Source: an uncultured Clostridia bacterium
GTDB taxonomy: Bacteria; Bacillota; Clostridia; TANB77; CAG-465
Assembly (NCBI GenBank): GCA_944387385.1
Contig: CALXES010000003.1
Span: 66,399 to 130,398 of the forward strand
DNA: 64,000 nucleotides
Direction: 5' to 3'
Under the pieces are notes generated by a model. The model was not told the DNA's origin, did no database searches, and saw nothing but the letters and a program-made list of their open reading frames with translations. Every line of letters starts with the position of its first letter. The first letter of the stretch is position 1. Shown here one piece after another: positions 3,646 to 63,750 of this stretch. The translations under genes and the position numbers were made by a program.

Positions 3646-4503
3646 TTAATCTATTTTCTTTAAAGTTGTAACACTTATTTCAGGAGTATTAAAAACTCTA
3701 ATAGGCACAGTAGAATTTCCAATACCTCTACTTATTATCATAACTTTATCTCCTCTTTTTTTCATTCCTGCACCATAAGTTGTAAAATACCAATTTTTCC
3801 ATGGAGTTGCAAAACCTAAGCCAAATAATCTAATACCACCTCCATGAACATGACCTGAAAATGTTAAATCAAAGCCCATTTTTACGTAAGATTTAAAATA
3901 TAATGGATCATGCATAAGCAAAATGTTAAACTTATTATTGTCTAACTTTCCAACTAGCCTTTCATATCCATCTTTATATTCGTTAATTACTTCATTTGTT
4001 AATGTTTTTCTTGAATGCTCTTTACTTGAATTAAATCTTAAACCATAAAGTTCTATTTCATCATCGTTTATTACTAAACTTGTTCTTTCATTGTCTAATA
4101 CAACAATACCTAATTTTTCTAATTCTTTTCTAAAATTAGCAATTCCTGACTCACCTAAAGCAAGTTCATGATTTCCAAGACAAAAATATATTGGTCTTGA
4201 ATTAATTCTTTTAAAAAATTCAAGTGCAGGTTTTATATCTTTATCTTGTCTTATAATAAAATCCCCAGTTGCTACAATGATATCCGCCTTTTGTCTATTT
4301 ATTAATTTAATTAATTTATCATTATCCTTCCCATAAGTAGTACAATGCCAATCAGATAAATGCAATATTTTAAATTCATCAAAACTTCTTGGTATTTTTT
4401 TATTTTTAACTTTATACTTACTTACAAATACCATTTTATAATCTATATAATATACTATAAAAATAAATAATAGTATTAATAACAATATAATAATATATTC
4501 CAT
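3646..4503 (-). CDS. membrane-anchored metallophosphoesterase (calcineurin-like)
   Basis: Motifs HLSDWH, GDFI, GNHE, GHVHGG; N-terminal TM helix. Start placed at ATG 4503 behind GGAGGAATA rather than the track start at 4584. Confidence 0.8.
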   Translation of the reverse strand: MEYIIILLLILLFIFIVYYIDYKMVFVSKYKVKNKKIPRSFDEFKILHLSDWHCTTYGKDNDKLIKLINRQKADIIVATGDFIIRQDKDIKPALEFFKRINSRPIYFCLGNHELALGESGIANFRKELEKLGIVVLDNERTSLVINDDEIELYGLRFNSSKEHSRKTLTNEVINEYKDGYERLVGKLDNNKFNILLMHDPLYFKSYVKMGFDLTFSGHVHGGGIRLFGLGFATPWKNWYFTTYGAGMKKRGDKVMIISRGIGNSTVPIRVFNTPEISVTTLKKID

Positions 4504-4608
4504 TATTCCTCCAATAAATATATTGTGATAATAACATATATCAATAATTTTTTCAATTACTGTATATATTAAATAAATAAACAAACAATAATATTAGGTG
4601 ATTAAAAA

Positions 4609-5034
4609 ATGAAGGATACAGATATTTTAAAAGAAATAAATAAAGCCTCAAAATATGGAATAAATGGTATTAATTTAACATTACAAAAAGCTATAGACAG
4701 TAATTTTAAAAATGTACTATATGCTCAAAAAGATGAATATGAAAATATTTATAACAGAAGTAAAGATTTGCTAATAGAGAAAAATCAAAGCTCTGAAGAT
4801 TTAGATCCTCTTGAAAAAGCGATGTCATGGATGTCTATACAAATGTCTACACTTACAAATGCATCAAATTCAAAGCTTGCAGAAATACTAATTCAGGGAA
4901 ATGATATGGGAATAATAAAAGGTCAAAAATTATTAAATAGTCCTATGTCAAAAGACTCTACAACTCAAAATTTAATTAAAGACTTTATTCATCTACAACA
5001 AGAAAATATAGAAGGATTAAAAAAATATTTATAA
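4609..5034 (+). CDS. hypothetical helical protein (possibly a CotF/ferritin-like four-helix bundle)
   Basis: 141-aa ORF with AGGTGA SD and a downstream terminator. Family guess rests only on a loose pattern (DILKEINKASKY...). Confidence 0.55.
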   Translation: MKDTDILKEINKASKYGINGINLTLQKAIDSNFKNVLYAQKDEYENIYNRSKDLLIEKNQSSEDLDPLEKAMSWMSIQMSTLTNASNSKLAEILIQGNDMGIIKGQKLLNSPMSKDSTTQNLIKDFIHLQQENIEGLKKYL

Positions 5035-5039
5035 CAACA

Positions 5040-5071
5040 AACAGGTGTAAATAATCTTACACCTGTTTTTA
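5040..5071. terminator. bidirectional terminator between convergent genes
   Basis: Hairpin ACAGGTGTA / TACACCTGT (5041-5066) flanked by A-rich and T-rich runs. Confidence 0.65.
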
Positions 5072-5467
5072 TTGCATTAGACTTTTAAAATAAGTTTGGT
5101 CTTCTAAAATTTTTGTTAATATATCTGACTCTTCCTTAGTTGGTATTTCTTGGCCAATTCTAAAGTTTGCAACATCTTCACACTCACACCCTAGTACATT
5201 TGCTAGTTTTTCATCTGTTACATCATCATAAATACTATATATCTCATTAATTTGTTTTACAGTTATTATTCCTTCTGCTTTTCTATATGCTTTATCTTTA
5301 CTCTGTAAATTCATATGAGGATCTTCTTCAAGTAAACTATCGCACTCTGGACAATATCCTCTAAAAGCTCTATATTTATATTTTTTATCATTTGTGTAAA
5401 ACTCAGAATTAAAGGTCTCCATTACTGGTTCAACTTCCATTTTACACTTATTACAATACATCTTCAT
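5069..5467 (-). CDS. YgiT/MqsA-like zinc-ribbon plus HTH protein
   Basis: 132 aa; CNKC...CPEC zinc ribbon at the N-terminus, helix-turn-helix-like C-terminal half (LANVLGCECEDVANFRIGQEIP); GGGAGGA SD. Confidence 0.5.
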   Translation of the reverse strand: MKMYCNKCKMEVEPVMETFNSEFYTNDKKYKYRAFRGYCPECDSLLEEDPHMNLQSKDKAYRKAEGIITVKQINEIYSIYDDVTDEKLANVLGCECEDVANFRIGQEIPTKEESDILTKILEDQTYFKSLMQ

Positions 5468-5595
5468 ATAACATCCTCCCTTTTTTATTTTAGTATTACA
5501 TTATACATTCATTTTTTATCAGTTACAAGTATATATTCAATTTGGTACAAAAAAATAACTAGTATGTAACATTTACAAACTAGTTAAAATTTAAT

Positions 5596-7893: not shown

Positions 7894-10341
7894 TTGGGAT
7901 ATGTTGATAGATTCATAAAAAAAATATCTTTAGAAAATACCAAATATAAAGAAAAGAAAACTCTTCTACCAAATCTTAGACCTGGTGACATTATCTGGGC
8001 AAAAAGATATTCAAAAGAAGAAGTTCGAGAAAATATTGATTTAGAACATCAAGAAAGCCCTTTTATAGTTATATACAAAAATGAATTAAATATATCATAT
8101 TGTTTAGAATGTAGCTCAAAAGAAGAAACAAAACAACCAAACATAATAAAATTTAAAAAGAAAGACTATCCTCACATACTATATAAAGATACATATGTAA
8201 AACTAAAATCAGATATTGAGCTTACAAGTTATAGATATATAAGAAAAATGGGAAGTTTAACAGTTAGTGACTTTAACATACTAAAAAAGAACTTATTTTT
8301 GCTAATGACAGATGAAGAAAATGCTAAATTATTTAGTTTTACAAAAAGTAAATTAAACTTCTATTTAGACAGTGGTGATTTTATACGCAAAGATGGTGAT
8401 CATTACCTAGTAGGGTATAAAGAAGGGAATACTCTTTATTCATATAGGGCCATAAAAGATGAATTTAATTCAGATATAACAATAAATAGTATTCCATTTA
8501 AAATACGTTATGATAAAAAGATAAAAATTAGTGCCACTGACACTTATATGCTTTTAGGTATATATCATAAATACAAATCATACTTTAAAAAACAAAAATT
8601 TATTGGTTATCATTTAGCTGATATTGGTGACTTAATACAAGTAAATAATAATTATTATCTTGTATATGGAAAATACAAAGAATATCTAGTTGTTATTCAA
8701 GTATACAAAGATATAAAAGGCCTAACAATAAAAACATATGACATTAGTATTAATAATACAAACTATAAAACTGGATATAATTTTTTCCTTCTATCATCTG
8801 AATATGAATACAATATAATATCAAATATTTTAGAATTTGAAATATGTGAATATACAAATAGACTTAAAGACTTAAATATTACTCCTAATTTAAGCACTGA
8901 AAATATTATTGAAACAAATAATTTATCTAATACTACTTTAAGTACATTACAAAAAGAAATACTAAATCAGTTAAAAGAAATGAACTTTAGCTTTGAAGAA
9001 ATTACTAGAATTATGATTGAACTAAAGGGAATAAAAGAACAACTCAAATTTAGAGAATATTTAATAAAAAACTATGATGAAAAAGATAAAGAAATAGTTA
9101 AAAACGCAGCAAGTTATATAGTATCTGATGGTATTTTTAATAATAAATTATTTCTAAAAGAGGGAGATATTATACTTGCAAAAAGAACAAATGATTCAAA
9201 TATTAAAAATAATATAATAAAGGATTATAAATCTATAGGACCATATGTAATAATTTATGTAGATAGAGAAAAAGAAAAAATATATGCCTTGTCAGGAGCT
9301 TATTCAGTAATTAGAGGGCCAAAGACCTTTTTTAAAATAAAATCAAGTTCTACTGAGCTCCAAGAAGATACAATACATTTAAAAAGTATCATTCCTACTG
9401 AAATAACAAAAGATGATTATATAAAAAAAATTGATGAATTACCAAATGAAGAACTAAACACTTTAAGAAAAAAAGTATATGCGATAATGTATTATAATGA
9501 AGATAATAACTTTTTTAATAAGGAAGTCTTATCATATTATAATTCTCCTTTTGACATTATAAATTATAAAAATAACTACTACTTAATATTTGATGAGGAT
9601 GATAAAAACTTTTATTCATATCAGTTATATGAAACTATATATCCTTATCTTAAAATAAATGATATAGGCTATATGGTAAATTTAAGAAATATAACAAAAA
9701 TACCTAAAGATAAAACTTATGAAGTTGTATATATAATTAAACCCAAACTTTTGGATGTAATAAAAAACAAAAAAAGATGGAAAGACATTAAATTACCTAT
9801 AGTAGAAAAAAATATAGAAACTGCAACACAAGGAGATATAATAAATTATAATAATATATATTATTTAGTTTTTGGTGAATATAAAAATTACCTACAACTA
9901 TATAAATTATATACTAAACAGGAAAATAATTTTGCTTGTTCATTTATAGCTGATAGTAAAACTTTTTATACAAATTTCCAAATATATTTAATTTCTAAAA
10001 ATGCAAATATCACAATTACAGATAATGTTAATCAAGATAAGTTAAATGAAATTAACAATATTAGAAAATCATATAAGAAAGTAAATACTATATATAATAC
10101 ACCTTTAGATTATAAAGATGAACAATCACCAAAACTAAATAAAGAACAATTACAACTAATAGATAAATTAAAAGAATATGACTTTTCCGAGGAAGAAATA
10201 ATAGGATACTTAGTTGCACTAAACAACAAATTTGTAATAGATGAGATTTTAGATTTTATTATAAAAAAAGAACAAACTAACACAATTTCAAAAGGTAAAA
10301 TAGGCAGAAGAATAAGAAGAACTGCACGAAAACAAGAATAA
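7894..10341 (+). CDS. large internally duplicated protein with two MazF/PemK-like modules
   Basis: 815 aa; TTG start behind AAGAGGTG. Two ~395-aa halves each carry GDII(W/L)AKR...P(F/Y)(I/V)(V/I)IY, two GD.I...YYL(V/I) beta-repeats and an L..LKE..FS.EEI helix. Confidence 0.6.
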   Translation: MGYVDRFIKKISLENTKYKEKKTLLPNLRPGDIIWAKRYSKEEVRENIDLEHQESPFIVIYKNELNISYCLECSSKEETKQPNIIKFKKKDYPHILYKDTYVKLKSDIELTSYRYIRKMGSLTVSDFNILKKNLFLLMTDEENAKLFSFTKSKLNFYLDSGDFIRKDGDHYLVGYKEGNTLYSYRAIKDEFNSDITINSIPFKIRYDKKIKISATDTYMLLGIYHKYKSYFKKQKFIGYHLADIGDLIQVNNNYYLVYGKYKEYLVVIQVYKDIKGLTIKTYDISINNTNYKTGYNFFLLSSEYEYNIISNILEFEICEYTNRLKDLNITPNLSTENIIETNNLSNTTLSTLQKEILNQLKEMNFSFEEITRIMIELKGIKEQLKFREYLIKNYDEKDKEIVKNAASYIVSDGIFNNKLFLKEGDIILAKRTNDSNIKNNIIKDYKSIGPYVIIYVDREKEKIYALSGAYSVIRGPKTFFKIKSSSTELQEDTIHLKSIIPTEITKDDYIKKIDELPNEELNTLRKKVYAIMYYNEDNNFFNKEVLSYYNSPFDIINYKNNYYLIFDEDDKNFYSYQLYETIYPYLKINDIGYMVNLRNITKIPKDKTYEVVYIIKPKLLDVIKNKKRWKDIKLPIVEKNIETATQGDIINYNNIYYLVFGEYKNYLQLYKLYTKQENNFACSFIADSKTFYTNFQIYLISKNANITITDNVNQDKLNEINNIRKSYKKVNTIYNTPLDYKDEQSPKLNKEQLQLIDKLKEYDFSEEEIIGYLVALNNKFVIDEILDFIIKKEQTNTISKGKIGRRIRRTARKQE

Positions 10342-10443
10342 TATTATGTAATATGATTGATTTGCCTAAACTCTTATGCTATAATTTTGGTGTATATTTA
10401 TTTTTTCTAAATTAAATATAACTATATTTATGGAGGGATTAAT

Positions 10444-10953
10444 TTGAAAAGTGAACCGATTCAAATCTATGAGGACGTATTAAAAGGCTCTTTACGCCGT
10501 TTTCCTCGAGGTTTTTGGGTAGATGACGAAGGCAAGAATCTTATTGCATCTGCTGAAATTACACGCTACTTAATTGAAAATGTATTAAAATGGAGTGATG
10601 AGAAAGTAAAAAGTGATATTTCGTGTAAAGTATTTTTTAATCACAAGCTAAAAGGTATGCTATGCACTCTTTTTGGAGATAGTGTGTATGCTGCACTAAA
10701 CAATGCATATCCTGGCAAGTACAAAGAATGGGAACTTGCGTGTACACCACGTAACTTTTGGACACTTGAAAATGCCAAAAAAGCAACAATTTGGCTTTTC
10801 AAAGAAAAACTACAATGGAGTGATGATGAGATAAGGCAAAATATCAGCAGGAGGATTTTTGTTGAAAATGGATTAGATACTATGATGCATGTGTTATTTA
10901 AAAACAATGCAAAAGCAGCTATATCCAACGCTTTTCCTGATTTATTCCGGTAA
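10444..10953 (+). CDS. hypothetical protein with an internal two-fold repeat, compositionally foreign
   Basis: 169 aa; TTG start behind GGAGGGA. About 37-40% GC by hand count of 10441-10560 against ~25% in the surroundings. Repeat (KWSDEKVKSDIS / QWSDDEIRQNIS). Confidence 0.6.
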   Translation: MKSEPIQIYEDVLKGSLRRFPRGFWVDDEGKNLIASAEITRYLIENVLKWSDEKVKSDISCKVFFNHKLKGMLCTLFGDSVYAALNNAYPGKYKEWELACTPRNFWTLENAKKATIWLFKEKLQWSDDEIRQNISRRIFVENGLDTMMHVLFKNNAKAAISNAFPDLFR

Positions 10954-10962
10954 AAATTAAAG

Positions 10963-10996
10963 GCAGGTAGATTTAAAAAATCTACCCGCTTTTTTG
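10963..10996 (+). terminator. rho-independent terminator
   Basis: GCAGGTAGA / TCTACCCGC stem (one mismatch) followed by T6. Confidence 0.6.
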
Positions 10997-11006
10997 CAAA
11001 ATAAAT

Positions 11007-11753
11007 TTATGATATTTTATATTTCTTATCATCATATTTGATTATTTGATTATCTGTATATCTACCATAATCTTTTGCATACTCTTTCATTTTATCCATA
11101 GGCATTTTATTTACTACAACACCTATTATATTTCCACCCATGTTCTCTATTTTCTTTTTAGTTTCAACTAGAGCTTCACTCTTTGTTTTTTCAATTGCAC
11201 AAACAAGTACAACTCCATCTGCTTTATTACATAATATCATACTATCTGTAACTATATTAATTGGTGGAGCATCAAATAATATAACATCAAATTTGTTCTT
11301 TACATTATCTAAAATCAAATCAAATTGTGAATTTTCAAAAAGCTCAGATGGATTATGAGGTACAGCTCCTGCAGGGATAATATATACATTATCTATTTGA
11401 GTCTGTTTAATGTATTTTCCAACTTCAGCATCTAGATTTTCATTATCCTTGTTTATATTTTTATTATCTAGAGCTTGAGCAAGTCCTTCTACATTATCTA
11501 CTTTAAATATATCATGTTGTCTTCCTTTTCTTAAATCACTATCTATAATTAAGACTTTTTGTTTAGACTGTGAAAAAGCAATTGCTAAGTTTGAGATAAT
11601 AAGACTTTTTCCATCTTCTGTTGATGAGCTAGTAATTAAAAATGACTTATAATTATTCTTACTCATCTTATATGTAATACTTGTCCTAAGTGTCCTTATT
11701 GCCTCTGATATTGGAGACTTTGGAGCCTCATGTATAATTAAATCTTTTCTCAT
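11007..11753 (-). CDS. CpsD/CapB-type tyrosine protein kinase (BY-kinase)
   Basis: Walker A TSSSTEDGKS, A' IIDSDLRKG, Walker B ILFDAPP, Tyr-rich C-terminal tail. N-terminal PKSPISEAIRTLRT is typical of CpsD. Confidence 0.88.
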   Translation of the reverse strand: MRKDLIIHEAPKSPISEAIRTLRTSITYKMSKNNYKSFLITSSSTEDGKSLIISNLAIAFSQSKQKVLIIDSDLRKGRQHDIFKVDNVEGLAQALDNKNINKDNENLDAEVGKYIKQTQIDNVYIIPAGAVPHNPSELFENSQFDLILDNVKNKFDVILFDAPPINIVTDSMILCNKADGVVLVCAIEKTKSEALVETKKKIENMGGNIIGVVVNKMPMDKMKEYAKDYGRYTDNQIIKYDDKKYKIS

Positions 11754-12565: not shown

Positions 12566-13006
12566 TTAAATACTGTCGCAATATTCAAAAATTTCCAAAT
12601 CACTAACTTTTCTTTTTTTCTTTGTATTTCTACAAATCTCATCTACGTATGACATATTAGATAATTTATTTTCATCATCTAAAGCATATATCTTATAGTT
12701 TCGAATAAGTAGACTTCTTGTTTTATTATCTAGTTTACATTGATAGTCATCATCAATCAAATAATTTTTTGATTTAGAAAATTTTTTTAAACGTTTAAAT
12801 TCCTTTTGTATACTCAAAAATATTGGTCTTTTTTTCGTAATTATTGGCTGTTCATTAAAAAGCTTATGCTCAATTTCGTACTTATTGTAATTAAATTCAT
12901 AAATGTACCAACAGTAAGAATGATACACCAACCTTTGAATTTGATATTCTTTAAGTTCTTCATTTAAACTAGCAAAATATTTAGCTATATCAACAGCAGT
13001 ATACAT
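12566..13006 (-). CDS. Panacea/DUF4065 (SocA-like antitoxin domain) protein
   Basis: 146 aa; N-terminal pattern AVDIAKYF...IQRLVYHSYCWY...LFNEQP matches my memory of DUF4065; AAGGAGTGA SD. Confidence 0.45.
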   Translation of the reverse strand: MYTAVDIAKYFASLNEELKEYQIQRLVYHSYCWYIYEFNYNKYEIEHKLFNEQPIITKKRPIFLSIQKEFKRLKKFSKSKNYLIDDDYQCKLDNKTRSLLIRNYKIYALDDENKLSNMSYVDEICRNTKKKRKVSDLEIFEYCDSI

Positions 13007-13249: not shown

Positions 13250-14656
13250 TTATACATGCTTAATATTTGTATTTTGAGATATCTCATTTGAAGTTGTAGC
13301 TAAGTCTTCTACACTCAATTCATGAATATCTTTATGTCCTGTTATTCTACCAAAAGTTTTTAGCTCTTCTTTTACATTTTCTAAATATTTAGCTACCTTT
13401 TTACTACTATTTTCTATAGATAATCTTTTACGAAGCTTAGGATCTTGTGTTGCTATTCCTTTAGGACACATACCACCATTACATACTCTATACTGATCAC
13501 ATCCTAAAGCAATCATTGCAGCAGTTGCAATAGCTACACAATCAGCACCCATAGCAATAGCCTTGGCAAAATCACTTGCATCATATAATCCACCAGTTAT
13601 TACTAAGTCTATATCTAAATTATTCTCTTTTAAATATTTCTTTGCTCTATATAATGCATATATAGTTGGAACTGATGTATTATCTTTTAAAAATGTTGGA
13701 CTTGCACCAGTTGCTCCACCTCTACCATCAATAGTAATAAAATCTGGCATAGCAAAATATACATATTCTAAATCCGCCTCAATATGTCCTGCAGCAATTT
13801 TTATACCAATAGGTCTTCCAAGTGATTTTTCTCTTAACTCATCTACTAAAGATTTCAAATCTTCTTTAGTTTTAATCTCTTCAAATTTAGATGGACTAAT
13901 TACATCTTCACCAATATTTTTACCACGTACTTTTGCAATCTCTTCTGTTACTTTATTTGCAGGTAAATGTCCACCCATACCAGGCTTAGTACCTTGTCCA
14001 ATTTTAATTTCTATAGCATCAGCATTTTTTAAATTTTCATCTGTTACACTATATTTATTTGGTACATATTCAAATATATATTTATATGATGCCTCCATTT
14101 CCTCAGGTAAAATTCCACCTTCGCCACTACACTCTGCAGTTTTAGCTATACAAGAGCCTTTAGCTAAAGCAATTTTTGCTTCTTTAGATAAAGCACCAAA
14201 TGACATATGTGAAATATATACAGGCATATCTATCTCAAGAGGACGCAATGCATGCTTTCCAATAACAGTTTTTAATGACACATCTTCATGATCAAAAAGA
14301 GGTGCAGGATTTAACTGTGCTCCAAGTATTAATACATCATCAAAACCAATAACTGGACGTGTTGTTCCCATAGCCGAAATTTCATTATAATTATCACTTG
14401 TAATAGCATGTATTTTTGAAACAGCTTTTTTAAGTCTTATTGGTGTATCTTTAGCCATTGCTTCCATAGAATCTTCAACTTCAGATTCTTTAGCAACTTC
14501 TTCCACACTTTCCACATCTTCCTCTATCTTTTCAAAAGCACTTTTAGGATTAAAACACAAAGGACATTTCCAATCATCTGGTAAATCCTTAAACAATACT
14601 CCTTCCTTTTCTTCATCATAAATATATCCACAAATTGTACAACGATACTTAGCCAT
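13250..14656 (-). CDS. rubredoxin fused to an FMN-binding glutamate-synthase-like domain
   Basis: 468 aa; N-terminal CTICGY...CPLC rubredoxin knuckles, then a GltB-central-domain-like TIM barrel ([25 protein letters not shown]). Confidence 0.85.
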
Positions 14657-14752: not shown

Positions 14753-16009
14753 TTAGCTTAATAAAATATCTTCTATAAGTGGTTCAACACCATCATCAAT
14801 TATTTTTTTTACTTTATTTTGTATACCATATCTATTTAAATCTATTGCTACATGTTTTATAACTTTTGCTGCAATCTCTCTAACAGGATATGAAAAGCTC
14901 ATATTGTTTACAATTCTTAACATAAAATTAGCCACTTTATCATAATCCTCCCATTTTAATCTATGTAATAAATATTCTTCTGATAATTCATTAACCATTT
15001 GTAGTGCCAAATTATTATCGTCTTTTATATACTTAAACAAAGCACAATCAAAATTATTAACATCACATAATAGTCTTAAAATTTTATCAGTTGGTAACTC
15101 ACTTATATACATATTTATTTGGTCATCATATTCATTTCTTTGAATAGCACTTTTTATAATTTCTTCATTTTGTTCTTTCTCATGAAAATCTATAGATTTA
15201 TTTATTGCGTCTAGTAATTTTTGAGCATCATCATATCTTAACATTCGCATTACAGAACATGCTTTTTCAACAACTGACTTAAACATATGACTAGTATTCA
15301 TAGGATTTTTATTCATTATAAAATTAATTATCTTACCTAAAGAATAGACATCACTTCTTTTATCTCCATCTTTTAATAACATGAATTGATCTGGATCACA
15401 ATACTGATATTGTCCCAAAGCATTTGTTAATATAGTTTGATGTGAATTTAATATATTTAAATTTTTTCCTAGTCCAAAATCACCAATAATTATTTTAGAA
15501 TCTGAAACAAATATATTAGTAGGACATAAATCTCTATGTACAATATTTCTATTGTGTACTTTAGCCATAATATTTAAAATTCCTTTAATTAACTTTATTT
15601 TTTCTTCATCATATAATATAAATTTATTTTCTATATAATGTTCTAAAGTTTCATTATAATATTTCATTGTATAAACATAATCATCTTTTTTATATTCATA
15701 TACTTCTACAATTCCATCTAAATCTTGCAGTGACTTTGTTATTTCAAATTCACGTTTAAATCTACTAACAATAGAATTCTTATCATACAATTCTTTATAT
15801 AAATGCTTTTCAACTATATTGTTTGATTTCCTTTTAAATACATTAGCAAAACCGCCATGACCTATTTCTTCTAAATCTTCATCCTCAATCACTATATATA
15901 CATTATTATTTTTTACTTGAAAAGATAATCCATCTACTCTTACAATTTTATTTAAAAAATTTAGTATGTCATTTCTAGCTTTCACACTCTGAACTTTATT
16001 TAGACTCAT
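14753..16009 (-). CDS. cytoplasmic eukaryotic-like Ser/Thr protein kinase with an uncharacterised C-terminal domain
   Basis: GHGGFANV glycine loop, catalytic loop HRDLCPTN (Cys where Lys is usual), DFG. No TM segment. No SD before ATG 16009. Confidence 0.75.
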   Translation of the reverse strand: MSLNKVQSVKARNDILNFLNKIVRVDGLSFQVKNNNVYIVIEDEDLEEIGHGGFANVFKRKSNNIVEKHLYKELYDKNSIVSRFKREFEITKSLQDLDGIVEVYEYKKDDYVYTMKYYNETLEHYIENKFILYDEEKIKLIKGILNIMAKVHNRNIVHRDLCPTNIFVSDSKIIIGDFGLGKNLNILNSHQTILTNALGQYQYCDPDQFMLLKDGDKRSDVYSLGKIINFIMNKNPMNTSHMFKSVVEKACSVMRMLRYDDAQKLLDAINKSIDFHEKEQNEEIIKSAIQRNEYDDQINMYISELPTDKILRLLCDVNNFDCALFKYIKDDNNLALQMVNELSEEYLLHRLKWEDYDKVANFMLRIVNNMSFSYPVREIAAKVIKHVAIDLNRYGIQNKVKKIIDDGVEPLIEDILLS

Positions 16010-16050
16010 ATCTCGAGTTAAATAATTTTCATCTAATATATATGAAAAAA

Positions 16051-16074
16051 ATCTTTCTATCTTTCTATCTTTCT
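16051..16074. repeat. 3 exact tandem copies of an 8-nt unit (ATCTTTCT plus strand / AGAAAGAT coding strand)
   Basis: Read directly from the sequence. A further partial unit ATC follows. The upstream ORF's stop codon lies inside the repeat. Confidence 0.95.
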
Positions 16075-16290
16075 ATCATCTTGCAACGTACATAAAGATT
16101 CAAAAACATAACGCCATCTTGAAGGAAATCCAGATTTATAAACATCTGATGAGCCAAAATTATTGTTAAAAAAATCTACTAATTGTGCCCCTGTTTTATA
16201 GCTATAATTATAAATCACATCGTCTATGTTTATTGGTATGTCTCCAATAAATATTTTTGAAATTCGTTTTAATACTTCGTCAGATAACAT
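16057..16290 (-). CDS. small protein, probably the detached N-terminal module of the kinase
   Basis: 77 aa from ATG 16290 behind AAAGGTGA (the track uses GTG 16299). Ends at a TAG inside the 8-nt repeat. Confidence 0.55.
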   Translation of the reverse strand: MLSDEVLKRISKIFIGDIPINIDDVIYNYSYKTGAQLVDFFNNNFGSSDVYKSGFPSRWRYVFESLCTLQDDRKIER

Positions 16291-16333
16291 TACTTTCACC
16301 TTTATTTCATATTATATCATAATTTATAAAAAC

Positions 16334-16378
16334 AAAAAAGACTTAAATATCAATCATATATGCTATTTAAGTCTTTTT
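16334..16378 (-). terminator. terminator after FrhB-like copy A
   Basis: GACTTAAATA / TATTTAAGTC stem flanked by A6 and T5. Confidence 0.6.
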
Positions 16379-16382
16379 AAAA

Positions 16383-17537
16383 TTACTTTCTTAATACTTT
16401 CTTTGCTATTCTTTTTCCTTTTCTTAGAATCTTTTTAACAATAGAAACTCTAGTATATTTATTCATAACATCTATAACATTATCACTATTTATAGAGCCT
16501 TTTTTTATACCTTCAAAAAACTTATCTCTACTTTTATGTGCAGGTACATTACTGAAATGATTATATTTAGCAGCTACATCAATATCTACTTTTTCAAGTA
16601 TAGAAGTATTATTTTTAAATATATTTAATAAGCTCTTTCCTTTTTCAGAATTTACTGTTAATAATGAAACTCCTTTTGTAGAATCTAAATCAGGTTTTAC
16701 TTTTTCAATTTTCCAAAAATCTGCTATCGTAAAATCAGTTATTCTACTTTTAGAAGCAAAAACACAAAAGTTACAAGATCTTCTATTAATTAATTCTTTA
16801 CCAAAGGCATTTTTAAATGTATCTTCATATAATACTTGATCATTTTGTAACTCAATTAATGTTCTTTCGTCTCCCCATTTAATTTCTTTACTTCTAAATC
16901 TAATATCTTTCACTTTTTTGGAATATTTTTTTTCTAAATTTTCTTTATATAACTTAAATACTTTAGGTGATGGATTAGCATGACATAGTATATCACAAAG
17001 TATTAAATTATCATATTCTTTACCAAGATAACTTTTTAATCCACTTATTTGACAAGCCGTTCCTGTATATAATACTACTCGTCCATCTTTTAAAAACTTT
17101 TCAGCTTCTTTATATGTGTTTTTCAAATCACTTCTTACATATTTAGAACCACAAAACTGTTTACAATCTTCTAAAGTTTCAGCATATTTGTGAATTACAT
17201 TTAAATCCTCATCATAGGTAACACCAAACACTACACCTTTATTTTCTATAACATATTTTGCTAATATGTAGAACATACCACCAGAAGAAGCATTTTTAAG
17301 TTCTTTATCATTATTATTAATAGCTATATATGCAACTGACTCTTGTTCACTTTTATTAAAATTAGAGCATACTTTCTCACATAAACCACAATTAATACAC
17401 TTTTCTTTATTTATATGTGGATATAAAAATCCTTCACCATCTTCTACCATTTCAATTGCACTTTTTGGACATCGCAAAGCACAAGTTCCACAACCATTAC
17501 ATAGTTCTTTTTTACCAGTATTAAAATAATTTTCCAT
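16383..17537 (-). CDS. F420-hydrogenase beta-subunit-like (FrhB family) 2x[4Fe-4S] protein, copy A
   Basis: 384 aa; [12 protein letters not shown] and [11 protein letters not shown] ferredoxin motifs. This family commonly accompanies polysaccharide pyruvyl transferases. Confidence 0.8.
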
Positions 17538-17712
17538 AGTCTTTCTCCTTATTTTCTTTTTAATATCATTTTAAAAATCTTATTAAGATTTTTCCATTTA
17601 CAACATAAACGTATAAAATAACAATGGCTAGTATTTTTGAAATTTTTTTAATACTTCTTCAAACAACATTGCTTTCACCTTTATTTCATATTATATCATA
17701 ATTTATAAAAAC

Positions 17713-17757
17713 AAAAAAGACTTAAATATCAATCATATTTACTATTTAAGTCTTTTT
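17713..17757 (-). terminator. terminator after FrhB-like copy B
   Basis: Same stem as 16334-16378; the loop differs at 2 positions. Confidence 0.6.
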
Positions 17758-17761
17758 AAAA

Positions 17762-18916
17762 TTACTTTCTTAATACTTTCTTTGCTATTCTTTTTCCTTT
17801 TCTTAGAATCTTTTTAACAATAGAAACTCTAGTATATTTATTCATAACATCTATAACATTATCACTATTTATAGAGCCTTTTTTTATACCTTCAAAAAAC
17901 TTATCTCTACTTTTATGTGCAGGTACATTACTGAAATGATTATATTTAGCAGCTACATCAATATCTACTTTTTCAAGTATAGAAGTATTATTTTTAAATA
18001 TATTTAATAAGCTCTTTCCTTTTTCAGAATTTACTGTTAATAATGAAACTCCTTTTGTAGAATCTAAATCAGGTTTTACTTTTTCAATTTTCCAAAAATC
18101 TGCTATCGTAAAATCAGTTATTCTACTTTTAGAAGCAAAAACACAAAAGTTACAAGATCTTCTATTAATTAATTCTTTACCAAAGGCATTTTTAAATGTA
18201 TCTTCATATAATACTTGATCATTTTGTAACTCAATTAATGTTCTTTCGTCTCCCCATTTAATTTCTTTACTTCTAAATCTAATATCTTTCACTTTTTTGG
18301 AATATTTTTTTTCTAAATTTTCTTTATATAACTTAAATACTTTAGGTGATGGATTAGCATGACATAGTATATCACAAAGTATTAAATTATCATATTCTTT
18401 ACCAAGATAACTTTTTAATCCACTTATTTGACAAGCCGTTCCTGTATATAATACTACTCGTCCATCTTTTAAAAACTTTTCAGCTTCTTTATATGTGTTT
18501 TTCAAATCACTTCTTACATATTTAGAACCACAAAACTGTTTACAATCTTCTAAAGTTTCAGCATATTTGTGAATTACATTTAAATCCTCATCATAGGTAA
18601 CACCAAACACTACACCTTTATTTTCTATAACATATTTTGCTAATATGTAGAACATACCACCAGAAGAAGCATTTTTAAGTTCTTTATCATTATTATTAAT
18701 AGCTATATATGCAACTGACTCTTGTTCACTTTTATTAAAATTAGAGCATACTTTCTCACATAAACCACAATTAATACACTTTTCTTTATTTATATGTGGA
18801 TATAAAAATCCTTCACCATCTTCTACCATTTCAATTGCACTTTTTGGACATCGCAAAGCACAAGTTCCACAACCATTACATAGTTCTTTTTTACCAGTAT
18901 TAAAATAATTTTCCAT
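17762..18916 (-). CDS. FrhB-family 2x[4Fe-4S] protein, copy B (protein identical to copy A)
   Basis: 384 aa, identical translation to 16383..17537. Confidence 0.8.
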
Positions 18917-18927
18917 AGTCTTTCTCC

Positions 18928-20331
18928 TTATTTTCTTTTTAATATCATTTTAAAAATCTTATTAAGATTTTTCCTATTTATAACATAAGCGTATACAACA
19001 GCAATTGTTAGTCCAATCACATATAAAATCATATTATTTGAATAGAATGCTATAAGTATTGGTATTAAAACTAATATTGTAGATATAATGAATGTTTTAT
19101 CAATTTTTATTTCAAAGTATCTCTTCTTTAAATCATGTAATCTATATACAGACATTACAAAATAAGCAGTCAGATTTGCTATTGTAGAAGCATATAATCC
19201 AATAAATTTAATCAAGCATAAATTAACAACAATATTAATTAAAGCAGAACCAATAGAAGTATTAGCAATCGCTTTTGTATTTTTTTTTGCAACATATATT
19301 GTACTTATAAGACCTACAACCACATTAAAAATACATCCTAGCATCATTATAGGTACTAAATTATATCCAGCAGAGAACTTTTCATTTATCATTATTGGAT
19401 ATACAAACGGCATGCATGCAATTATTCCAATACTCATAGCAGTAAAAAATCTTAACATCATATTAGTCATTTTATTTAAAAATTCTTTAGAATCAGAATC
19501 ATCAATATGTAATGACACCATTTCAGTCCAGCTCAAATTAAATATATTATATAAAGTTATAAATACATTAGAAAATTTGTGTGCAGCCGATAAAATACCA
19601 TTTTGCGCTACTCCTAATATTGCAGATACTATAACTCTATCTGATGCATTAAAAACCCACCAAGATATTGCATTTGGAATTAATGGCAATGAATATTTCC
19701 ATAATTTCATTAATACGACTTTTTTAAATTCTGATATACTAATATATTTATACAATTTTAAAGCAAAAATATTGTATATTGCACATATTATTTGACCAAG
19801 CATATTAGCCATTAACATTCCATATGCTCCAAATTTAAATACTACTAAAAACAAAATATTAAAAATTATTGTTGAAAAAGCAGACAAAAAACTACCTATA
19901 GCATAATGAGTATTTTTCCCTAACCCTCTTGCCATTTGTTGAGTTAAAGAAGCAAAAATATATGCTATAACATTAGTAGCTAAAAAATATTTGTACTGAT
20001 TTTCAAAAAATGGAGATATAATAAAAAATATACCAATATATACAATACATTGTAATAGTACGGAAAATATTCCAGTAGAAATTATTTTCTTTTTTACATC
20101 TTCATTTTCTCTATTGTCAATTAAATTTCTAAATACAGCCTGTTCAACCTGAAAAGTTACTATTGGCAGTAATAAAGAAACTAAAGTATTTAATAAGTCA
20201 ACTGTTCCATATTCTTCAGTAGATAATATAGCAGTATAAAGTGGAAGTAAAAAGAATGTTATAAGTTGTGTACAAACTTTTCCTATTGTTATAATAAGTG
20301 TGTTTTTAAATAAAGTTTTTTCCCTACTCAT
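18928..20331 (-). CDS. wzx: Wzx-type oligosaccharide flippase (MOP superfamily)
   Basis: Polytopic membrane protein of ~467 aa. Start moved to ATG 20331 behind AAGGGAG; 8-nt overlap with the upstream gene. Confidence 0.8.
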
Positions 20332-38485: not shown

Positions 38486-39943
38486 CTATTCCTGTTTAGC
38501 TTTAACTAAATTATCTGTTTGATTATCTTCATCACTTATATTGTTTACACCAGTTAAATTAATATTTTTTGTTGTCTTTCCTTCAAAAGTATCAGCCTTA
38601 ACTATCTCTTTTATATCAATACCAGTAGCTTCTTTTACTGATTCAATTACCTTTGCCATAACAATTGGAACATTTTCAGCCATGTCTGTAACACCACTTG
38701 TATTTCCTCCTATAACTGTCACTTTATCTATAGAAGAAATTGGTTCTGCCACATTCTTTGCAAATTCTGGAAGCATATTTACTATCATTTCAACTATAGC
38801 AGCTTCACCATACTTTTTCATAGCTTCAGCTTTTTTGTCTATTGCTTCTGCTTCAGCAATACCTCTTGCTTTTATAGCCGCTGCTTCTGCTTCACCTTTT
38901 GCTTGAATTGCTTTTGCTTCTTGTTCTTGTGCATACTTTTTGGCATCAGCTTCTTGCTGTTGAGCATATTTTTTTGCATCTGCCTCTTGCTGTACTCTAT
39001 ATTTTTCTGCCTCTGCTTTTTTCTTAATTTCAGCTTCTAAAGCTTTTTCTGTTACTTCAATTTCTTGTCTTCTTAACTCTATTTCTCTTTGTCTTTTAGC
39101 AATATCTGCATCTGTTGATGTAACTTCAATTACTTTTCTTTGTTCTTGTTTTTGAATTTCAAAAGCGGCATCAGCTTCAGCTGCTTTAGTATCAGCTGCT
39201 TTTTTTAGTTCAGATTTACGTATATCTAACTCATTTTGCTTTTGAGCAATCTCTAAATCTGCTTTTACACGAGCTTCATTGGCTTCTTTATCTGCTTGCG
39301 CCTTTTTAATTTCAACATCCCTATCAGCTTCTGCTTTTGCAATCGCCGCATCTTTACGAATTTTTGCAGTATTATCCATACCCATATTCTGAATAAGATC
39401 GCTTTCATCTTCAACATTTTGTATATTGCATGAAATAATTTCAATTCCAAGATTCCTCATATCTACAGATGCCTTTTGTTGTACTTGATTTCCAAAAGCT
39501 TCTCTATTATTACATATATCTTTTAAATTAATTGTACCTACTATCTCACGCATATTTCCTTGTAAGGAATCTTGTAAATCAATTATAATCTCATCTGATG
39601 TTTTATTAAGAAAGTTTTTCATAGCAAGTTCTAAAAGTTCAGGTTCCGTACTAATTTTTACTTTTGCAACTGCATCTACCTGAATATTAATAAAATCTAA
39701 AGTTGGTATATATCCATCCGTTTTTATATCTACTGTTACTTGTTTTAATGATAATTTATCTATCCTTTCAAAAAAAGGAATTCTTATTCCAGCACGTCCA
39801 ATTAAAATACGTGGTTTTTTCTTAAAACCAGATATAATATATGCTGTATCCGGTGGTGCTTTAACATATCCTGTTAAAATACCTAAAAATAACAATAAAA
39901 CAAAAATACCTATTATAATATAAACAATAGTCATAAAACACAT
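38486..39943 (-). CDS. floT: flotillin (SPFH/Band 7 domain, FloT-like)
   Basis: 485 aa; N-terminal membrane hairpin, SPFH domain, long Ala/Glu/Lys-rich coiled coil with repeated QQEADAKKYA. Confidence 0.85.
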   Translation of the reverse strand: MCFMTIVYIIIGIFVLLLFLGILTGYVKAPPDTAYIISGFKKKPRILIGRAGIRIPFFERIDKLSLKQVTVDIKTDGYIPTLDFINIQVDAVAKVKISTEPELLELAMKNFLNKTSDEIIIDLQDSLQGNMREIVGTINLKDICNNREAFGNQVQQKASVDMRNLGIEIISCNIQNVEDESDLIQNMGMDNTAKIRKDAAIAKAEADRDVEIKKAQADKEANEARVKADLEIAQKQNELDIRKSELKKAADTKAAEADAAFEIQKQEQRKVIEVTSTDADIAKRQREIELRRQEIEVTEKALEAEIKKKAEAEKYRVQQEADAKKYAQQQEADAKKYAQEQEAKAIQAKGEAEAAAIKARGIAEAEAIDKKAEAMKKYGEAAIVEMIVNMLPEFAKNVAEPISSIDKVTVIGGNTSGVTDMAENVPIVMAKVIESVKEATGIDIKEIVKADTFEGKTTKNINLTGVNNISDEDNQTDNLVKAKQE

Positions 39944-59604: not shown

Positions 59605-60674
59605 TATTACTACACCTCCTAAACAATGTATATATATTAAATAATTTTCAACTCAAAAAAATAAATGCTAATCATTTAGTTAATTAAGCATTCAAACATA
59701 ATATAAGTGAAAATATTATACACTATTATATTTTTTTTGTCAACCCCCTCAAGATCTAAAACTAATTGTAAAACACAACAATTTTCCACAAAAGTTATCC
59801 ACAGTTTTTATGTATACTTGTAAATTACAAATTTGACTATCTTTGACCTTAAAAAATCAAATTTATATGTGGATAACTTAAAAGTGATTACAAATTGTAA
59901 TTAAAAATATGTAAAAAATAAACATAAAAACATAAGTTATCCACAGTTTTTACGTAAACTAAACACTGATAGAAATTATATTAAAAAAAATTTTGCGCAG
60001 TTAAATTTTTAATAAAAAATTTTCACAAAAAAAACTTTAGTAAATTCAGTATTTTCAGTATGTTAAAGGTTTCATAATTTTTTTATTTTTTGTGAAAATA
60101 TTTAAAGTTATCCACAGATTTTATGTATATTTATTTTAAAATTTTTTTATGAAAAATCAAGTTATCCACAATTTTATCCACAAAGGTGTGGATAACTTTT
60201 TTTGCTTTTCGGTGTTTCAAAAAAATTTTGTTGTTTTTTACAACTATTATCCACATGGACAACTTTCTTTAATTTTATATATTTTGAATTAATTTTAATT
60301 TACATATGTAAAAGTTTAAAAAAAACATTAATTTATCTGTATTTTACAAATTTACATAAAAATTGTGGATAACTTATTTTTATTTATAAATTACAAAAAA
60401 AAGAATAGGCTATTTTACTGGGTTTTAAAGTGTTTTCTAGTTAAAATTACAAAAATATTTCAAAAACATTGCCAAAATGTTATTTTTTACAATTTTAAAA
60501 GTTATCCACAGAAAATTGTGGATAACCTGTGGATAACTATGTGATAGAATTGTGAAAATAAATTTTTGTCGAAAAGTTATCCACATGGGGTGTGGATAAC
60601 TACACTACTTATCCACAAAGTTATCCACATTAAATGCACCAGTCAAAGCCTTGAAAAAAGCGGATTTTTAAAAG

Positions 60675-60747
60675 TTATCCACATTATCCACACCCCCTAC
60701 TACTACTACTATATATAAAAGAATAAATAACTTAATATTTTAATTAA
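60675..60747. promoter_or_regulatory. candidate basal unwinding element: 2 abutting DnaA boxes, GC cluster, DnaA-trio-like repeats, AT-only stretch
   Basis: TTATCCACA TTATCCACA (60675-60692), CCCCC (60693-60697), (CTA)5 at 60697-60711 (TAG x5 on the other strand), then a G/C-free stretch 60710-60747. Confidence 0.6.
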
Positions 60748-61110: not shown

Positions 61111-62523
61111 ATGGAAGAGAATTTTATGAATGTTTGGGAAAAAGCTTTGGAAATATTAAAGGATGAAATATCTCAAATAGCATACAATACATATATTGAA
61201 GTAATGGTACCTCGACTTGTAGATAAAAATACTGTTTGTTTTTTATCACCATCTAGTTATTATATTGATATTTGTAAAAAAAGATATCTTGAACTTATTA
61301 GAAATACATTAAAATATTTAACTAGTGTAGATTATCAAATAATATTTGAAGCTAAACCAACAATTCCAGAAAATGGAGACTCTGATTTAGAAGATTTAGA
61401 AATTATTAGAGGACAATATGGGGATATTGAATCAGAAAATTCTGATGAAAAATTAAACCCTATATTAGATAAAGAAAAAATAAGAGAAAAAGCAGGACTT
61501 AATAAAAGATATACTTTTGATAATTTTATTATTGGAAATAACAATCGTTTTGCTAGAGCTACTGCATATTCTGTGTATGAAAATTTAGGACTTACTAATC
61601 CATTATATATATATGGTGGAGTAGGACTTGGAAAGACACACTTAATGCAAGCAATAGGTAATGCTGTAATTGACGAGGATCCCTCTAAAAAGGTTTTTTA
61701 TTGTACAGGTGAGTTATTTGTTAATGAGCTAATAAAAGTCATGTTAAATCCTAAAAATGCAGATTTAAATGATTCCTTTAAAAAGAAGTTTAGAAATGCA
61801 GATTTACTTTTAATAGACGATGTACAAATAATTGCGGGAAAAGATAAATGTCAAGAAGAATTTTTCCACACATTTAATGCTTTATGTGAAAGTGGAAAAC
61901 AAATTGTTCTTACATCTGAAAAACCTCCAAAAGAAATAAATGGACTTGAAGATAGATTAAAAACTAGATTTTCAATGGGAGTAAGTGTTGATATTCAAAC
62001 ACCAGACTATGAGACAAGACTTGCAATATTAAAAAAGAAAGCAGAAGAAGAGAGATATTTAATTGATGATGAAATATTAATAAAAGTTGCAACAAAAGTA
62101 AAATCTAATGTAAGAGAACTTGAAGGAGTTTTTAATAAATTAATGGCTTACACTAAATTTACTAATAATCAGTTAACAGATCCTGTTGTAGATAATATAA
62201 TAGAATCTATTTTAGTAAAAAATAGCAATGTATTATCTAGTACATTGGTAATGCAAGTAGTAGCAAAATTTTTTGATTTAAGAGTAAGTGACTTAACAAG
62301 TGATAAAAGATCTACATCTATTGCATATCCTAGACAAATTGCTATGTATTTGTGTAGAGAAGTAGCAGATATGTCTTTTTCTGCAATAGGAAAAGATTTT
62401 GGTGGAAGAGATCATTCAACTGTATTACATGCATATTCGAAAATAAAGGATGAATATGATAATAATCCAGATACAAAAGATTTAATTGATGATATTAAAA
62501 AGACGTTAGAAAGAGAAAGTTAA
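61111..62523 (+). CDS. dnaA: chromosomal replication initiator protein
   Basis: 470 aa; AAA+ motifs GGVGLGKTHL and LLLIDDVQ; C-terminal DnaA signature IGKDFGGRDHSTVLHA. Confidence 0.97.
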   Translation: MEENFMNVWEKALEILKDEISQIAYNTYIEVMVPRLVDKNTVCFLSPSSYYIDICKKRYLELIRNTLKYLTSVDYQIIFEAKPTIPENGDSDLEDLEIIRGQYGDIESENSDEKLNPILDKEKIREKAGLNKRYTFDNFIIGNNNRFARATAYSVYENLGLTNPLYIYGGVGLGKTHLMQAIGNAVIDEDPSKKVFYCTGELFVNELIKVMLNPKNADLNDSFKKKFRNADLLLIDDVQIIAGKDKCQEEFFHTFNALCESGKQIVLTSEKPPKEINGLEDRLKTRFSMGVSVDIQTPDYETRLAILKKKAEEERYLIDDEILIKVATKVKSNVRELEGVFNKLMAYTKFTNNQLTDPVVDNIIESILVKNSNVLSSTLVMQVVAKFFDLRVSDLTSDKRSTSIAYPRQIAMYLCREVADMSFSAIGKDFGGRDHSTVLHAYSKIKDEYDNNPDTKDLIDDIKKTLERES

Positions 62524-62631: not shown

Positions 62632-63750
62632 ATGAATATTAAATGTGATTTAAAAGAATTAATAAATGCTTTAAATATTGTTTCAAAAACATCTAGCTCA
62701 AAAACAACAATGCCTATTTTAGAGGGTGTTTTATTTGAGGCTTATCAAAATAAACTAAAATTAATAACAAATGACTTAGAAATTGGATCAGAACATACTT
62801 TTTCTTGTGAAGTAATAAGAGAAGGAAAAACAGTTGTTGATTTAAGAATGTTAAATGAGATTGTTAGAAAAATTGAGGATGAGTTTGTTGAAATTTCTGT
62901 AGATGATAACTTATTTGTTTTAAAATCAATTAACGGAATTTTTAAATTAGCAGTAATGAATCCTAATGAGTATCCAAAACTTCCAGTTTTTGATATAGAA
63001 AATAGCATACAACTTGAACAAAGTGTTTTTAAAGATATGATTAGAAGAACATTATTTTCTGTTAGTACAGATGAAAATAGACCAGTATATAATGGTGCTT
63101 TAGTAAAAGTAGAAGATAATGTTTTAACTATTGTTACAATTGATGGATTTAGGTTATCTTTAAAAAAACATATTTGTGAAAAGGAAATTAATAATTTTAA
63201 AGCTATTATTCCTGGTAGAGTACTATCAGAACTCCTAAAAATATTAAGTGACAACGAAGGAGAAATGGTAAGAATTGGAATTAATAGAAATCAAGCTTTA
63301 TTTGAAATTGGAAATAGTATCATAATAAGCAGATTAATTGAAGGAGAATTTTTAAATTATCAAAGTATTATTCCAGAAAAATATGAAACAAAAGTTAGAG
63401 TAAAAACTAAAAAACTACTTGACTCATTTGAAAGAGTTGCATTATTTGCAAAAGAAAATAAGGAAAAAGATAAAAAATCACCAGTAAAAATGAGATTAAG
63501 TCTTGATGGAATTACTTTAAGTTGTGTTAGTGAAAATGGTGATGCAAGAGAAGACATTGCTGCGTTAGTTGAAGGTAAAGAATTAGAAATTGGATTTAAT
63601 CCAAGATATGTAATTGATGCTTTAAAAGTTATTGAAGATACAGAAATTTGTATTGAATTTACTACTAGTATATCACCTGTACTTTTCAAACCTGTAGTTT
63701 CTAATGAATTTACATACGTAGTTTTACCAATAAAAATTAAACAAGACTAA
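62632..63750 (+). CDS. dnaN: DNA polymerase III beta sliding clamp
   Basis: 372 aa; three-domain clamp pattern (MPILEGVLFEA..., NPRYVIDAL). Confidence 0.95.
   Translation: MNIKCDLKELINALNIVSKTSSSKTTMPILEGVLFEAYQNKLKLITNDLEIGSEHTFSCEVIREGKTVVDLRMLNEIVRKIEDEFVEISVDDNLFVLKSINGIFKLAVMNPNEYPKLPVFDIENSIQLEQSVFKDMIRRTLFSVSTDENRPVYNGALVKVEDNVLTIVTIDGFRLSLKKHICEKEINNFKAIIPGRVLSELLKILSDNEGEMVRIGINRNQALFEIGNSIIISRLIEGEFLNYQSIIPEKYETKVRVKTKKLLDSFERVALFAKENKEKDKKSPVKMRLSLDGITLSCVSENGDAREDIAALVEGKELEIGFNPRYVIDALKVIEDTEICIEFTTSISPVLFKPVVSNEFTYVVLPIKIKQD

Follow-up and report, generated by a model that had tools for sequence, protein, structure and literature searches.

Classical contingency loci carry long repeat tracts that occur with many unit numbers. 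In lacI of Escherichia coli, a CTGG sequence repeated three times is reportedly a frameshift hot spot (the observation is attributed to Farabaugh et al. 1978), and slippage gains and losses of one unit at this site are said to dominate the spontaneous null mutations and to revert relatively easily. The pneumococcal genes cap3A, cap8E and tts show phase variation by tandem duplication, according to Waite et al. 2001 and 2003. Stk2 is a staphylococcal Ser/Thr kinase that works as a one-gene abortive-infection system (Depardieu et al. 2016, as presented in PMC6532042, PMC11470126 and PMC9146914). In the mechanism given there, a phage protein activates the kinase, many core host proteins become phosphorylated and the infected cell dies.

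The kinase gene described here belongs to an uncultured low-GC Clostridia species (host genome G+C 25.5%) and lies in a stretch of 64 kb, which was analysed as a whole and is called the window below. It is flanked by capsule-type polysaccharide genes, and an 8-bp tandem repeat interrupts its reading frame. The explanation that we consider probable is that a recent slipped-strand duplication inactivated an Stk2-type defence gene and that the null allele segregates in the population.

Reading frames at the repeat

The coding (minus) strand contains three copies of AGAAAGAT in exact tandem at 16051–16074. TRF reports the array at 16051–16077 with a period of 8, 3.4 copies, 100% matches and the unit ATCTTTCT. 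The minus-strand codons at the break are ...CAA GAT GAT AGA AAG ATA GAA AGA TAG AAA GAT TTT TTT CAT... The features that make up the gene are as follows.

14753..16290, minus strand: whole Stk2-family kinase gene, frameshifted here; 1,538 nt, whereas the intact two-unit allele has 1,530 nt and encodes 509 aa
16057..16290, minus strand: 5' fragment ORF of 77 aa plus stop, corresponding to residues 1–77 of the N-terminal domain (from the ORF list)
16051..16077, minus strand: tandem array, GAT plus three AGAAAGAT on the coding strand (plus-strand unit ATCTTTCT), with the third unit as the inserted duplicate
16057..16059, minus strand: premature TAG stop after codon 77, in frame at the junction of unit 2 and unit 3 (from the ORF list and the reconstruction)
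14753..16009, minus strand: 3' fragment ORF of 418 aa, corresponding to residues 92–509 (from the ORF list)

The 5' frame has no internal stop over 16057–16299 (minus strand), and its ATG is at 16290. The 418-aa ORF includes the end of the N-terminal domain, the Hanks-type kinase domain and the C-terminal helical domain. We rebuilt the gene in silico with 1, 2, 3, 4 or 5 repeat units, and two units give the sole open frame among these, with 1,530 nt including the stop and 509 aa. A single unit shifts the frame and leads to a stop after 81 aa. All rebuilds with three or more units end at the identical TAG, because in that frame the TAG arises at the unit junction. The original prediction had described the exact three-fold 8-bp repeat at 16051–16074, and both TRF and the coding-strand reading agree with it. 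It had also ended the upstream ORF (ATG 16290) at the TAG inside the repeat and derived one 509-aa, 1,530-nt ORF from one unit fewer; the ORF does end there, and the rebuilding gives exactly that product.

The 3 × 8 array is the only exact tandem of at least three copies with a unit of 5–12 nt in the 64-kb window, and an exact 3 × 8 array appears in none of 100 dinucleotide-preserving shuffles. Exact 2 × 8 arrays are frequent, with 13 in 64 kb (about one per 5 kb) against 3.9 in the shuffles. Another repeat of the window, an imperfect in-frame 33-bp tandem with 2.6 copies of about 79% identity, is found at 38908–39016 within a 485-aa ORF (38486–39943).

Identity and fold of the kinase

The PADLOC Stk2 profile (PDLC02375) covers the reconstructed 509-aa protein from end to end. 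Residues 3–507 align with profile positions 2–498 of 500, with 567 bits and an E-value of 7e-171. Pfam Pkinase covers residues 136–369 of the fused protein (E = 1.5e-25). A search of 5.8 billion proteins with the 509-aa query found 510 relatives, and nearly all of the 120 relatives listed are about 500 aa long and have 100% query coverage. In an alignment of 18 sequences, the invariant catalytic residues are the GxGxxG motif at 141–146, K159, E178, HRD at 249–251, N256 and DFG at 268–270. The N-terminal domain in the same alignment has its own set of invariant residues, G16, D17, Y31, K32, G34, F41, N42, G54–P56, R58, W59, F78 and L83, while Met92 is conserved in the closest relatives only. 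The dN/dS value against the 85% orthologue is 0.27 for residues 1–91 and 0.26 for the kinase domain.

The AlphaFold model of the 509-aa protein has a mean pLDDT of 86.6. Residues 1–117 form a confidently folded domain in the model, mostly helical with two short strands, and the ten-residue means of pLDDT are 89–96 across residues 1–110. The break deletes residues 78–91; invariant F78 and L83 are lost, together with helices 75–82 and 85–92. Foldseek and PDB searches find the kinase domains of PknB, Stk1 and StkP, and these searches gave kinase-domain matches only, with no solved structure for the N- or C-terminal domain.

Sequence and model together indicate that the 77-aa and 418-aa ORFs are one gene cut inside a domain. 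The end-to-end match to Stk2, the relatives of about 500 aa, the conserved residues on either side of the break and the cut fold argue for one protein rather than two. A Ser/Thr kinase is split here, as had been proposed originally; the proposed separation of the kinase from an N-terminal module does not hold, since the cut falls inside the conserved domain. As judged by the profile match, the reconstructed protein is a member of the Stk2 family, being full-length, equipped with the catalytic domain and encoded by a single gene. The copy in the window is a disrupted member without an intact ORF. Anti-phage defence activity is predicted for this kinase.

Other collections were searched for the protein or for models of it. 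The NCBIfam release searched returned no Stk2-specific model and gives partial kinase-domain matches far under the cut-offs. A scan of phage genomes found no homologue of the kinase. Among GTDB species genomes, a protein-pattern scan detected just an Acidobacteriota kinase at 27% and nothing closely related.

Expression signals

The upstream region of the gene contains three putative expression signals.

16332..16378, minus strand: terminator-like hairpin with U-run, ending the upstream 384-aa gene (from RNA folding)
16319-16311, minus strand: extended -10-like element TGATATAAT, read off the sequence, with a putative promoter role
16303-16296, minus strand: moderate Shine-Dalgarno sequence AAAGGTGA, with an energy of -5.1 kcal/mol

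The hairpin has a folding energy of -15.4 kcal/mol and a z-score of -5.9, and none of 200 shuffles is equally stable. With this terminator-like structure upstream, the kinase gene is probably transcribed alone and thus probably constitutes its own expression unit. The consensus promoter scan does not include the -10-like element among its results. The Shine-Dalgarno sequence at ATG 16290, called good in the original prediction, turns out to be only moderate, as its -5.1 kcal/mol compares with a median of -8.9 kcal/mol over 38 genes of the window. The same prediction saw no Shine-Dalgarno sequence at the kinase ATG 16009, and here we agree, with an energy of -1.8 kcal/mol that is near background (the median of all ATGs is -0.25). 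This ATG starts 47 nt past the TAG stop. The 77-aa stub can be made. The 418-aa kinase is probably not translated from the three-unit allele, because it has no Shine-Dalgarno sequence and its start lies so far after the stop.

Alleles in public contigs

Contigs with alleles of this gene were found in ENA and Logan; the samples represent at least two series of studies (BRZ_ and ONAT22-1/ERR4096...). The two-unit allele is present at the DNA level on at least 14 metagenome contigs (L001–L008 and L022–L027), each with an uninterrupted 509-aa gene. Public protein P0001, located on at least eight metagenome contigs (L001–L008), is 100% identical to the two-unit reconstruction. The 77-aa product (P0128) and the 418-aa product occur together on five contigs beyond the window, and three units are confirmed at the DNA level on four of the five (L009–L012) and in the window. 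The 20 contigs include no allele of 1, 4 or 5 units, and JGI metagenomes gave no match to a DNA pattern allowing 1–4 units. Other unit numbers had been expected in related strains, and the 14 two-unit contigs supply them; three units in all relatives, named at the outset as the observation that would speak against the idea, is not what these contigs show.

Apart from the 8-bp indel, there are zero nucleotide differences across the 1.5-kb gene in 13 copies. The alleles of L022–L027 are slightly diverged, with 10–11 nucleotide differences (about 0.7%), and have two perfect units each. The sample sets of the two-unit and the three-unit allele do not overlap. At the repeat site, the orthologues of 85%, 67% and about 43% identity stay in frame and lack any indel, which makes two units the ancestral state and three units a derived duplication. 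In the 85% orthologue the site reads GGAAAGAT AGAAAAAT, a degenerate form without the perfect 2 × 8 repeat. The three-unit form has the properties of a null allele, since an intact allele and intact orthologues exist and the disruption lies within a conserved domain. It is young, as the 8 bp are all that was found to distinguish it from the intact allele, and both alleles segregate among near-clonal strains of the species.

Wherever the contigs are long enough, the gene order is as in the window. It runs from a glycosyltransferase, a pyruvyl transferase, a flippase and two 384-aa FrhB/ferredoxin-like genes to the kinase, and continues downstream with a rubredoxin/glutamate-synthase-like gene and then Wzz/CpsD-like genes. 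L001 departs from this order by a 3.5-kb insert only.

Two more distant members of the family are broken independently, one by a nonsense codon (L020) and one by IS6 truncation on a Lactococcus plasmid (L021). The L020 member (4001–5527) is the 67%-identical Stk2-family orthologue and lies on a conjugative-element-like contig. A TTA-to-TAA change at an invariant Leu (VYSLGR to VYS*GR) splits it into 313 and 187 aa, and its intact version is found on L028 and L029. The L020 contig encodes PrgI, a VirB4/TraG-like ATPase and an M23 peptidase, and the intact copies also have an MT-A70 methylase. On the Lactococcus lactis plasmid NZ_CP065734.1 (L021, 2267–4365), an IS6-family transposase has cut off the 5' part of an Stk2-like kinase gene (40% identity), whose neighbours encode an AlwI-family restriction enzyme and two adenine methyltransferases. 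Such independent breaks within the family speak for raised lability or for selection.

Flanking haplotypes

Judged by several kb of flanking sequence, the strains are nearly clonal. Two flanking haplotypes carry the three-unit allele. The window and L009 have an 'A' tract at 16882–16629 and L010 has a 'B' tract, which comprises 57 SNPs and is common to the two-unit contig L001. The two-unit allele occurs on three flanking haplotypes. In a four-gamete test, the flanking markers are mutually incompatible (A/B against 16540/16531/16503). The markers are situated inside a 1.38-kb tandem duplication, in which gene conversion or assembly collapse is likely. The spread over haplotypes could reflect recurrent gain or loss of a unit by slippage at a raised rate, as in switching. 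Recombination explains it equally well, and given the mutual incompatibility of the flanking markers, either recombination or chimeric metagenome assembly can account for it. Farther downstream, SNP 10324 tracks the unit number. The shared 13.5 kb contain four 8-bp tandems (8860, 11035, 12608 and 16051), and only the one at 16051 varies, which fits either hypermutability or selection for OFF.

The duplication itself is about 1,380 bp in size, lies at 16253–19012 and contains the 384-aa FrhB/4Fe-4S ferredoxin-like gene twice (16383–17537 and 17762–18916), with identical proteins. Its 3' edge reaches past the promoter region of the kinase gene into the ORF, of which about the first 38 nt are included. 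The public contigs share this duplication, and L001 and L010 have the recombinant 57-SNP tract in each of the two copies.

Origin of the interruption

The ancestral gene would have contained two adjacent copies of AGAAAGAT, forming a 16-bp direct repeat. Strand slippage during replication would then have produced a third copy and added 8 bp. The resulting frameshift would end translation at a TAG behind codon 77, within the conserved N-terminal domain, and the Stk2-type abortive-infection kinase would be silenced, with a 77-aa stub and a 418-aa ORF without a ribosome-binding site as remnants. Precise loss of one unit should restore the gene, and the null would be reversible in principle. Slippage as the mechanism and the loss of function are what we infer from the two alleles, and the defence is most likely non-functional in this genome.

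The same 8-bp tract could instead toggle between two units (ON) and three units (OFF) by slipped-strand mispairing and so hedge phage protection against the cost of a suicidal kinase, an idea that we regard as rather unlikely. The unit length of 8 is not a multiple of 3 and the repeat is intragenic, the unit number differs among near-identical strains, and both states are found in the same cohorts in near-identical backgrounds with no further substitution in the gene. The three-unit allele is on two flanking haplotypes. Pneumococcal capsule genes provide a precedent for ON/OFF change by tandem duplication and precise reversal, and phase-variable defence is known for R-M and BREX. If this reading were true, the lineage would alternate between a live suicide defence and its silencing, for example under a triggering prophage or a high cost of autoimmunity. 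However, only two or three units are present instead of a long tract with a spectrum of unit numbers, and the 20 contigs have no 1- or 4-unit allele. The ON state requires n = 2, and all n of 3 or more share one stop, so there is no cycling through frames. The sample sets of the two states are separate, the perfect repeat is not kept in the 85% orthologue, 2 × 8 repeats occur about every 5 kb in the genome, and recombination or chimeric metagenome assembly accounts for the haplotype spread with no need for recurrent slippage. In a limited literature search, no Abi kinase was described as phase-variable by slipped-strand mispairing. With just two states, no conservation of the perfect repeat in the 85% orthologue and an abundance of 2 × 8 arrays, the tract more closely resembles an ordinary hot spot of mutation than a contingency tract that evolved as such. 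Between the switch and the inactivating duplication that had been offered originally, the duplication is favoured and a dedicated high-frequency switch is not demonstrated.

Three further readings concern the products of the three-unit allele or its reality. It is very improbable that the locus is a functional split gene, with the 77-aa piece and the 418-aa kinase both made and either cooperating or giving a deregulated kinase. Both ORFs are intact and unmutated, and the 418-aa ORF retains the entire catalytic domain. Yet the break is in a folded conserved domain and removes residues 78–91 with invariant F78 and L83, ATG 16009 without a Shine-Dalgarno sequence and 47 nt past the stop makes translational coupling unlikely, Met92 is not conserved, and nearly all of the relatives listed are single chains of about 500 aa. 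Still less credible is that the three-unit allele gives an almost complete protein by a programmed -1 ribosomal frameshift in the repeat. Between a point just 5' of the repeat and the TAG, the kinase frame has no stop, and a -1 shift anywhere in these roughly 20 nt would suffice, but the zero frame (GAT GAT AGA AAG ATA GAA AGA TAG) contains no X XXY YYZ slippery heptamer and the intact allele requires no recoding. As for a sequencing or assembly artefact in the repeat count, short tandem repeats are sometimes miscalled, but the three-unit allele was assembled independently on five further contigs (ENA, Logan). Its presence in at least two study series excludes a consensus error, and we give an artefact next to no weight.

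Genomic surroundings

The gene neighbourhood contains several other variable or unusual elements. PADLOC applied to eight neighbouring proteins gives no match to any defence model. The L001 insert (8162–11700; 3.5 kb) encodes proteins of 820 and 279 aa without a Pfam or PADLOC match and is placed between the equivalents of window positions 14122 and 14747, directly downstream of the kinase. The direct repeat that flanks it, about 626 bp long, is a partial extra copy of the rubredoxin/glutamate-synthase-like gene. The insert could be an unknown defence or cargo cassette, and its position beside the kinase suggests a variable hot spot. A 242-aa ORF antisense to the rubredoxin/glutamate-synthase-like gene (13563–14291, plus strand) is called as a gene on L003 and is almost certainly spurious. 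A 146-aa ORF at 12566–13006 (minus strand), downstream of the kinase, has no Pfam match. The locus of the 85% orthologue has, at the matching position (L013, 9949–10392), a gene for a 147-aa antitoxin-type protein (SocA_Panacea), whose neighbours are an AAA_14 fragment and a DUF1186/RtcB gene; this hints at a variable toxin–antitoxin or defence region.

The other end of the window has DnaA-box-like repeats (TGTGGATAACC, TTATCCACA) at 60517–60692, upstream of dnaA (61111–62523), and a likely dnaN at 62632–63750; together these indicate that the window spans the chromosomal replication origin. The DnaA homologues come from MAGs, some of them labelled 'Clostridia bacterium', at 81% or lower. The ORFs just before the origin have sizes consistent with mnmG, mnmE, jag and yidC, an assignment by size only.

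Significance

In an uncultured lineage of gut Clostridia, the analysis recognises a kinase of the Stk2 abortive-infection type and finds its gene in two natural states, intact and knocked out by 8 bp, in otherwise near-identical strains. This would be a natural example of how costly defence genes may be lost quickly, and possibly regained, by micro-duplication. The isogenic alleles are ready for probing the uncharacterised N-terminal domain of Stk2. No new mechanism is revealed; the kinase is one more Stk2 homologue, and its interrupted form is a null allele of the familiar type caused by a frameshift in a short repeat. An annotation should join the two ORFs into a single gene with a frameshift flag.

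Comparison with known systems

The closest protein is staphylococcal Stk2. Both kinases have a conserved N-terminal domain, a Hanks kinase domain and a helical C-terminal domain, and both are single genes, with partner genes not detected nearby. Relatives of the present kinase are found on mobile elements or beside R-M systems, which is also a likeness to Stk2. The differences are the host, an uncultured low-GC Clostridia species, the frameshift in the gene and a function that is predicted, phage-triggered phosphorylation and abortive infection being known from staphylococcal Stk2 only. Stk2 is located in SCCmec, whereas this kinase is chromosomal, amid capsule-type polysaccharide genes and about 45 kb from oriC.

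With respect to the repeat, the locus is similar to classical contingency loci such as R-M mod/hsdS in having an intragenic unit that is not a multiple of three and a unit number that differs between close strains. It differs from them in having two against three units, a single ON number and an 85% orthologue without the perfect repeat. The pneumococcal capsule duplications are alike in that OFF is a short tandem duplication within the ORF and ON is the unduplicated state, with restoration through exact loss of the duplicate, which is predicted for the kinase. In the pneumococcal genes switching was measured in culture, whereas here two fixed alleles are seen across samples. The lacI CTGG site is also a low-copy tandem repeat in a coding region that changes by one unit. 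Its unit is 4 bp rather than 8, and its evidence comes from the laboratory, while the evidence here comes from natural populations.
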